DNA of 64,000 nt, taken from Escherichia coli (GTDB lineage Bacteria > Pseudomonadota > Gammaproteobacteria > Enterobacterales > Enterobacteriaceae). Where the stretch lies: assembly GCF_017348835.2 (NCBI RefSeq), contig NZ_CP071375.1, one strand, 5' to 3'. A program made the position numbers. Of this stretch, positions 19,901 through 22,900 are shown in pieces (position 1 is the stretch's first letter; every line of letters begins with the position of its first letter).

Positions 19901-22900
19901 ACCGCTGAAACGGTGCTCTGTATCCGCGGTGATGGCGGTGGTCACCAGACGGCTGTCCTGACCGCTTCCACTGGTCAGGCGCAAACTGAAGCGCACGCCC
20001 TTCACCACCCGCGGCGTGTCCCATTTCGCCTGTGCCAGATACTGGCCGTCAGCGGCGCTCACCTCCACCGTCAGGTGCTGCACTGCCGGTGGAATAACGC
20101 TGTTCAGGGTGCCTGACTGCGGCTCAAAGCTGGCCCCGTTATCCACGATGGCTTCCTTTTCCGGTACGTGCTGCACCGCCGTGATGGCAAAGGTGCCGTC
20201 CGTGTTTTCCCGGATGGAGACACAGCGGAACAGGCGACGACGCAGTGACTGCAGGGAGAGTCCCCATACACCGTATGTCTCCACACCATCAGGCAGGGTG
20301 CTGACCTGTATCCGGTCCGGCGCGGGGTGTGCGGTGATGTCCACACTCACCGGCTTACCGCTGCCGTTAATCAGGTTCACCGTGGCGGCACCTGTCTCCG
20401 GCAGGGTCACCTCACGGTCCAGTGTCAGGGTGCGGCTGGCGGCATCAATGGACAGGACACGTCCGCCGGTCAGGGTCCCGGCATAGTCGTTATCACAGAT
20501 TTCAATGATGTCACCGGGTGTGTGCCGCAGCCCCTGAGACCCGAGCGTGAAATCCACCGTCTGCGTTTCCAGCAGTCCGGTCTTTATCACCCACAGTCCG
20601 GCACGGTGGGCCTGACCGCGGCTGGTACAGCCGAACGCGTCCATCTTCAGCAGGTTGCGTCCGTAGCGCAGTATGGCTTCCGGGTCTTCCACCAGTTCAG
20701 TGGAGGTCTGCCAGCCGTTCTGCGGGTCGGTGTAATTCACCTCCACCGCCGTGTGCCGGTCCTTCAGGGCACTGAAGCTGTAGCGGAATCCCACGCCGTT
20801 ATCATCCACCACCACATCGCTGTTGGTGTACGGCCACACCACATCCGACGGGCGGTCCTGAACGAACGTCAGCGTCTGGCCGCTCCATACCGGCATACAG
20901 CGCATCGCCGAGCAGAAATCACTGAGAACGTCCCACGCCTTACGCTGTTGTGACAGGTACGCATTAAAGGTCATCCGCGGCTCTGTGCCCCCGAAACCAT
21001 CCGGGACCGTCTGGTCGCAGTACTGCCCGATGGCATACAGCGCCCACTTGTCAACATCCGCCGCCACCAGACGTTTTCCCATGCCATAGCGCGGGTGAGT
21101 CAGCATGTCCCACAGGCACCAGGCCGGGTTGTTGCTGTATGCCGGTTTCAGGCTGCCGTCCCAGATGCCGCTGTACGTGCGTTTTTCCGGGTCATAGTTT
21201 GACGGTACCTGGATGATGCGACCGCGGATATGGTAGTTCACCGTCATCTGCTGACCGCCAAACTGCTCCGCATCCACCTGCAGCCCCACAATCGCCGTGT
21301 TCGGGTAGCACTGTTTCACATCGATGATTTCGGTGTATGACGACCAGAGCGTCTTATTCTGCAGCTGGTCCGTGGTGCTGTCCGCCGTCTCCCTGACCAT
21401 CCGGATGTTAAAGGGCCGGGGCGGCAGATTATCCAGAATCACCGACGCCAGGAACTGTGAGGTGGTCTTGCCGTTAATGGTGACATCCTTTTCCGTCACC
21501 CAGTTACCGTTACGCTGCAACTGAATCAGCAGTCGGACAGAAGAGGGATTACGGTCGCCCTTTGAGGTGGTCTCCAACAGTGACTGCACCCCGAAGGTGA
21601 CCCGCAGGCGGTCAATGTTCGCGGACGTAATGGTGCGCGTCACCGGCTTTGCCTTCGTCACTTCCACGCCCAGTGCGGTTTCCGCCCCGGAGGACTCAAA
21701 GCCTTCAGGTGGTGTCTGCTCCTGCTCCCCGGCGCGCCAGACCGCTGTCACACCATGTATCACAGGATTACCGTCCGTGTCCGTCAGCGGGGTTTTGTTC
21801 ACCAGGATACTCTGCAACCCCTTCACCGGACCTTCAATCGGCCCTTCACCAATGGCATCAATCACGCTCATCATCTGCGTGGACTTAAGATTGTCCTTTG
21901 CCTCAACCGGCGTGTGCGCCCTGCCGCCACCTTTACCCATAATGTTCCTCTCAATTGGTATTATTAATCGCAGTGATAGGATATTGCACAGCTATTGCGC
22001 GATATCATCAGAACGCTGTTTGTTACCCTGTAACCAGCAAGCTCAGTCTGTTAACGGAATTAATGAGGGTTTTATGAAATGTAAAATCATTGCTGCCATT
22101 GCCATGCTGACAGCAGCATCATGCGGATACGCAGCAGAACAGGAAGTCCCAATGAACCTTGTCAGTGCTGACGGAAAAGAAGTCAGCATTGGAAAAATAA
22201 CCATTCAGGAGACCCCCTACGGTCTGCTGTTCACACCAGCCCTTCACTCTCTGTCTGAAGGCATTCATGGTTTTCATGTGCACGAAAAAGGAAATTGCGC
22301 CCCGGCACTGAAAGACGGAAAACCGGTCGCAGCATTATCGGCTGGCGGTCACTTTGACCCGAAAAACACCGGCAAACATCTTGGCCCCTGGTCTCCGGAT
22401 GGACACCTGGGCGACCTCCCTGCGCTGTTCGTGACGCATGACGGAAAAGCGAACTACCCGGTCCTGGCCCCGAGACTGAACTCATTAAAAGAGATTAAAG
22501 GGCGTTCTCTCATGCTTCATGCTGGCGGTGATAACCATCATGACCATCCGGAGCCCCTGGGCGGTGGTGGTGCGAGAATGGCCTGCGGCATCATTCAATA
22601 ATCAGTCAGGTAAGGGGCGGGCCCCTTACCTTTATTCCTCAGGACGATAAATCCTTTCTCCCTGAAAAGAACGGCACATCCTCCCTCTCTGAGTTAATGT
22701 TTTTGTCGTGACATAAGAATAATTCCTTACACTCAATCTTCGTAACGCTCCCGCAGTTCCTGTCCGTGAGCACTGCGGGATTTTTTCGCTTTTATGCCTG
22801 CCGCCCGATAACCACCACCTTCCCGTCACCGCCTTCATCACGGGTACTGATGTCCTGGGATATACGGCGGGAGCCAACCAGCATTTCCCCGTAAGGCACC

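Follow-up and report, generated by a model that had tools for sequence, protein, structure and literature searches.

The window analysed here, a stretch of 64,000 nucleotides of Escherichia coli contig NZ_CP071375.1, carries an intact sodC gene that is very probably sodC-F1, the prophage-borne Cu,Zn superoxide dismutase (SOD) gene of enterohaemorrhagic and related E. coli, residing as a moron in a lambdoid tail module of a prophage beside tRNA-Ser. This gene is already known, having been characterised experimentally in 2008, and is annotated in hundreds of genomes; as a discovery, a real but ordinary gene of this kind carries little weight. Its value is that of a textbook example of a prophage moron, which supplies pathogenic E. 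coli with a sturdier and differently regulated antioxidant enzyme, paralleling SodCI of Salmonella.

The sodC open reading frame (ORF) lies on the plus strand and runs from an ATG at 22074 to a TAA at 22599-22601 (22074..22601 including the stop codon); it is preceded by the ribosome-binding site GAGGG at 22065-22069, and its 175 codons encode a 175-aa precursor of Cu,Zn SOD. No second sodC copy was found within the window. The product matched the Pfam family Sod_Cu (PF00080) with 111.9 bits (E 3.9e-32; cut-off 28.9 bits), the match spanning residues 40-174 and profile positions 3-133 of 133. Its closest relatives in the PDB are bacterial periplasmic Cu,Zn SODs (E ~1e-62), among them 1z9n, 2wwn, 1eqw, and 2aps (E 1e-59 to 1e-63); 1eso, the monomeric enzyme of E. 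coli, was matched with E 1e-56, and homologues with solved structures share about 60% identity with the product. When the product was aligned with human SOD1 and K-12 SodC, the Cu ligands fell on H68, H70, H93, and H149 and the Zn ligands on H93, H102, H111, and D114, whose counterparts in human SOD1 we take to be H46, H48, H63, and H120 for Cu and H63, H71, H80, and D83 for Zn. The active-site arginine (R168) and C171 are invariant across all three proteins, and the partner of C171 in the disulfide pair, C75, aligns with a cysteine of K-12 SodC. No catalytic residue was missing from this alignment, which had been set beforehand as the possible refutation of the initial annotation of a complete Cu,Zn SOD gene; with the ORF intact and every ligand, the arginine, and the disulfide present, the outcome favours a functional enzyme. 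These data support the view that sodC is a complete gene for a Cu,Zn SOD of the functional type, and activity is predicted for the allele in the window.

The product also carries the export signals of the published enzyme. The SodC-F leader is cut either by signal peptidase I (SpI) between residues 20 and 21 or by SpII at the lipobox AASC, which removes 16 residues, and the mature protein has 155 aa (PMC2569942). The signal peptide encoded in the window (residues 1-20; 22074..22133, plus strand) fits this description: the lipobox A-A-S-C occupies residues 14-17 (nt 22113-22124), the signal peptidase I site lies between residues 20 and 21, and the mature length is 155 aa (175 - 20). The periplasmic location given in the initial annotation is thus upheld as far as export is concerned, but not as a purely soluble state, in view of the AASC lipobox and the published split between periplasm and membrane.

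Over a 701-nt segment containing sodC, the window agrees at 100% identity with sodC as annotated in many complete E. coli genomes, and the carriers of this identical sequence include O157:H7, O55:H7, O121:H19, O145, O45:H2, and O111:H8; the RefSeq product of the identical gene is WP_000649829.1. E. coli O157:H7 has two prophage copies, sodC-F1 and sodC-F2, located in CP-933R and CP-933V (PMC2569942). The sole difference between them is nt 335, which is T (Leu) in sodC-F1 and C (Pro) in sodC-F2 (D'Orazio 2008, PMC2569942). In the window, nt 335 is T and codon 112 is CTG, giving Leu112 and hence the F1 allele. The comparison with chromosomal sodC and the prophage sodCF variants that had been proposed at the outset gave 60% identity to K-12 b1646 over 168 residues, in line with the ~61% published for mature SodC-F and chromosomal SodC (PMC2569942), and a match to the published details of SodC-F1. 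The basis for naming the gene sodC-F1 is the 100% identity to O157:H7 genomes other than EDL933, together with agreement in every detail printed in that study. The window gene shares with SodC-F1/F2 of O157:H7 the 175-aa precursor, the 155-aa mature protein, the AASC lipobox, Leu112 (F1 allele only), and the location in a lambdoid tail region (PMC2569942); in contrast, its prophage resembles that of the porcine strain PE164 and adjoins yodB/zinT and tRNA-Ser, and is not one of the two named EDL933 prophages.

Among 5426 complete genomes, 540 contain this sodC, with 1-4 copies per genome and 542 records in all, and 541 of these records show at least 99% DNA identity; many cattle, food, and environmental isolates are among the carriers. 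The same gene is annotated in the same slot in PE164, and in the Stx2a-converting phages EH2201 and EH1846 sodC is annotated there as well, with the host specificity protein on one side and the tail assembly protein on the other. The idea of a pseudogene or inactive SOD-like remnant, a passive passenger of the prophage, could appeal to the frequent decay of prophages, as in the O157 strain PV15-279 with its frameshifted J, tape measure, and terminase genes, and to the unannotated copy of 91.5% identity in RM13322. It is effectively refuted by the intact frame with all metal ligands, the arginine, and the disulfide, by the conservation of the DNA in the 541 records, and by the high activity of the published purified protein (PMC2569942). 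The RM13322 copy itself (L008 4001-4700) is the only one below 99% among the 542 records; it has no gene annotation and a gap-rich alignment, the adjacent J is flagged as frameshifted, and the copy is likely decayed or indel-rich.

The surroundings of sodC are those of a lambdoid tail module. On one side lies J (18464..21940, minus strand), divergent from sodC, which encodes the tail tip/host specificity protein of 1158 aa with seven GpJ/tail-tip Pfam domains and is annotated in PE164; it is followed by an Ail/Lom gene (17772-18431, minus strand; Pfam) and a tail fibre protein gene (16394-17713, minus strand), the product of which has a long collagen-like Gly-X-Y repeat region. On the other side, the tail assembly gene I (22792..23472, minus strand; Lambda_tail_I, E 2.4e-16) is convergent with sodC and has a shorter RefSeq start equivalent to 23373, and beyond it come K (23376-24113, minus strand; Prok-JAB and NlpC/P60) and L (24119-24817, minus strand; Pfam). 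The initial annotation had placed sodC between J and the tail assembly genes and in opposite orientation to the flanking tail genes, and both points proved correct. At a larger scale, the window and the chromosome of the porcine strain PE164 are nearly identical, and the host is not O157:H7-like. The chromosomal genes yedJ to yodB come first and then the prophage, which yodB/zinT adjoin on one side; the effector genes nleF, nleH, nleC, and nleB2 lie at the right end of the prophage, and the integrase gene at the prophage end (60851-61876) sits beside tRNA-Ser(cga) (61929-62018).

The extent of the inserted DNA could be read from a comparison with the sodC-less Stx2c phage PV98-693 (L007). In blastn, homology between this phage and the window extends to 21940 at 96.9% identity and resumes from 22686 at 95.7%, which delimits a sodC cassette of 745 bp (21941..22685, plus strand) reaching from the J start codon to the resumed homology with sodC-less lambdoid phages. 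Where the window has these 745 bp, the short I-J spacer of PV98-693 has an unrelated 131 bp with its own hairpin, and only chance-level local alignments were obtained between this spacer and the cassette. The base composition differs as well: the GC content is 50.5% in the cassette and 39.8% in its upstream 133 bp, as against 57.6% in J and 59.6% in I (57.6-59.6% across J, I, and K), and GC3 is 0.51 for sodC, 0.71 for J, and 0.65 for I. In the usage of Hendrix and colleagues, a moron is a cargo gene that a phage genome carries as an independent unit, and a cassette missing from a close sodC-less relative fits this definition, as the initial annotation had it. Judged by these sequence features, the moron architecture holds, with an insertion between genes that are adjacent in a related phage, an own terminator-like hairpin, and a deviant composition.

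The terminator scan and folding placed an intrinsic-terminator-like hairpin followed by TTTATT at 22608..22637 on the plus strand. The hairpin (22608-22631) starts 7 nt past the stop codon; of the 10 bp in its stem, 6 are G-C pairs, the loop has 4 nt, and the fold has -19 kcal/mol, with z = -2.7 versus dinucleotide shuffles. The T-tract that follows, TTTATT, is short and not continuous. An allele on plasmids with 78% DNA identity retains the stem by way of one compensatory change from G:C to A:T. Termination at this site, the gene's "own terminator" of the initial annotation, is thus predicted from the sequence, and the interval 22074-22637 named there corresponds exactly to the coding sequence plus terminator. 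A second terminator-like hairpin, TCCGTGAGCACTGCGGG followed by ATTTTTT, occurs at 22763-22789 (plus strand), immediately beyond the stop codon of I. This hairpin belongs to a segment common to sodC-less phages and faces against the tail operon, and in lysogens it could keep antisense transcripts from running into the tail genes.

The sodC promoter is presumed to lie within the 133-bp non-coding region upstream of the gene (21941..22073, plus strand, including the ribosome-binding site) or just inside the 5' end of J. A scan of 21700-23000 for the sigma-70 consensus gave 0 sites, and the best candidate under relaxed settings was a weak one, TTGGTA-16 nt-TGaTAGGAT at 21955-21982, with 8/12 matches. 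Salmonella sodCI is controlled by PhoPQ, which was the reason for scanning for a PhoP box (KGTTTA-N5-KGTTTA, up to 3 mismatches). No match with two or fewer mismatches was present in 21941-22073; two matches with 3 mismatches overlap the ribosome-binding site and the start codon, and since such matches are common window-wide (226 found vs 155 expected), PhoP control of sodC is without support. As for published promoter activity, a 299-bp upstream fragment, which corresponds to 21775-22073 of the window, gave RpoS-independent expression when fused to lacZ (PMC2569942).

Given that sodC points away from J and towards I, transcription of the late operon would give RNA antisense to sodC, and expression of the gene would accordingly be expected in the lysogen. 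This bears on the notion that sodC serves the phage in lytic growth, for instance by protecting the producing cell, rather than the lysogen. The position of sodC inside the late (tail) region would suit such a role, which we nevertheless regard as very improbable: since sodC and the late operon occupy opposite strands, late transcription of the gene gives antisense RNA and not mRNA, tagged SodC-F protein is produced in uninduced lysogens (PMC2569942), and complete Stx phages without the cassette exist among the close relatives.

For activity, dimer formation, RpoS independence, partial lipidation, and the H2O2 sensitivity of mutants, the literature on SodC-F provides the basis. SodC-F is dimeric and about three times as active as SodC (19380 vs 6290 U/mg, the former value being that of SodC-F1 in the pyrogallol method), and its resistance to proteases, chelators, and heat is far greater (PMC2569942). 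It is made in log phase and anaerobically in an RpoS-independent manner and splits between soluble periplasmic and lipid-anchored membrane fractions (PMC2569942). Deletion mutants suffered more killing by 250 µM H2O2, and the H2O2 sensitivity of a triple sodC mutant was no higher than that of single-class mutants (PMC2569942). Taken together with the intact gene, the conserved ligands, the cassette limits, the identity with a known gene, and the distribution found in the present analysis, these properties suggest the following scheme. In the lysogen, sodC would be transcribed from its own promoter, at the position presumed above, against a silent late operon, and the transcript would end at its own hairpin before gene I. 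The 175-aa precursor would be exported, with SpI cleavage after residue 20 releasing a soluble periplasmic enzyme and the alternative SpII cleavage at Cys17 giving a lipid-anchored one. The mature enzyme would bind Cu through H68, H70, H93, and H149 and Zn through H93, H102, H111, and D114, stabilised by the C75-C171 disulfide, and its dismutation of periplasmic superoxide would lessen the harm done by reactive oxygen species from the host or the environment. Any benefit of this kind would probably be specific to the lysogen, and a role against the phagocyte burst may be part of it.

In Salmonella, SodCI has a virulence role and acts against the phagocyte oxidative burst in vivo, and it is for this enzyme, not for that of E. 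coli, that such a role is shown. For E. coli, the protective role that the initial annotation had suggested is supported by the H2O2 sensitivity of the mutants and the relative enrichment of SodC-F in bacteria inside Caco-2 cells (PMC2569942). The same study reports no animal-model phenotype for E. coli sodC-F (PMC2569942). Alternatively, the active enzyme might owe its value to shielding the envelope in general from superoxide of periplasmic or environmental origin rather than to countering the phagocyte burst, with the membrane-anchored fraction as its key form; examples of settings are the gut of cattle or pigs, survival outside the host, and shifts from anaerobic to aerobic conditions. Consistent with this, EHEC and related strains stay mainly outside host cells as pathogens, SodC-F is expressed in log phase and anaerobically without RpoS dependence and is in part lipid-anchored (PMC2569942), cattle, food, and environmental isolates are numerous among the carriers, and related alleles also occur on plasmids. 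However, the enrichment inside Caco-2 cells and the parallel to Salmonella SodCI in expression pattern, stability, activity, and dimer formation (PMC2569942) argue against it, and we consider general protection a possible but rather unlikely explanation.

In the phage collection searched, only nine records encode a sodC homologue. The counterpart in the Salmonella phage Fels-1 (STM0924, sodCIII) occupies the same I-J slot and is antisense to both neighbours, but it has only 60.5% amino acid identity to the window SodC. The prophage-borne periplasmic Cu,Zn SOD of Salmonella Gifsy-2, SodCI (STM1044), is likewise antisense in the tail module; it differs, however, in its 58.8% identity and in its slot, which is flanked by L and the Lom-like gene adjoining M instead of by I and J. 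Gifsy-2 sodCI was thus ruled out as the same moron by the identity and the other slot, and is rather an analogue and distant homologue. Salmonella SodCI is dimeric, stabler and more active than the chromosomal enzyme, and has an expression pattern very like that of SodC-F (PMC2569942). The chromosomal E. coli SodC (b1646) is of the same family, with the same ligands and periplasmic export, but differs from the window enzyme by its 60% identity and its other chromosomal locus; it is monomeric, RpoS-dependent, made only in stationary phase and aerobically, fully soluble, and less active and stable (PMC2569942).

A wider protein search revealed graded E. coli alleles at 99, 85, 82, 80, 79, and 76% identity, followed by a Salmonella protein at 67% and then by SodCs of Serratia, Pantoea, and Pseudomonas at 60-70%. 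The 82% allele (L009 4719-5582; also L010 and L011) is found on E. coli plasmids of ~90-110 kb, with ParA/ParB and an IS3-family transposase as neighbours. At the DNA level, its homology corresponds to 21795-22654 of the window and includes ~146 bp of the J 5' end as well as the terminator hairpin; because this part of J is retained upstream, the plasmid copy appears to be derived from the prophage cassette. The 67% allele of Salmonella enterica (L012 5001-5525) shares its contig with TraI/TraX conjugation genes and a ScsC/DsbA-like thioredoxin gene, which is another mobile, non-phage context of the sodC lineage.

A question raised by these relatives is whether sodC entered the I-J junction once. 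At the DNA level, the window and Fels-1 share 69.7% over 343 nt of sodC, 71-74% in J and I, and 81.6% at the I 3' end, and their non-coding cassette parts showed no similarity beyond chance-level local alignments. Thus sodC has diverged about as far as the flanking J and I, and slot and orientation are the same, which is compatible with one old insertion. We therefore put forward, tentatively and with somewhat more doubt than conviction, that a single ancient sodC insertion at the I-J junction co-diverged with the tail genes and later escaped to plasmids, forming one mobile lineage. If so, sodC-F would represent a lineage moving between prophages and plasmids, and not repeated captures of the chromosomal gene.

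Several other features of the prophage and its surroundings were also observed. The effector cluster at 11723-13866 comprises nleF (11723-12292), nleH (~12347-13258), and an nleC fragment (13576-13866); nleH, flagged as frameshifted in PE164, has only a 234-aa ORF at 12478-13182. The adjacent nleB2 (13900-15946) is interrupted by an insertion of ~1.05 kb that encodes a DDE transposase (14437-15405) and is absent in the otherwise near-identical PE164; two SseK_NleB ORFs remain (13900-14493 and 15431-15946). An IS3-family element of 1.3 kb is present at 42277-43586 in the lysis/late region of the prophage; PE164 has the same element (99.8% identical) in an ompC-like porin gene, which is intact in the window (~1904). 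The prophage further contains a tRNA cluster at 46624-46873 (minus strand) with Arg(tct), Arg(tcg), and a tRNA with the anticodon CAT, the last being assigned to Met by ARAGORN and to Ile in the RefSeq annotation of related genomes.
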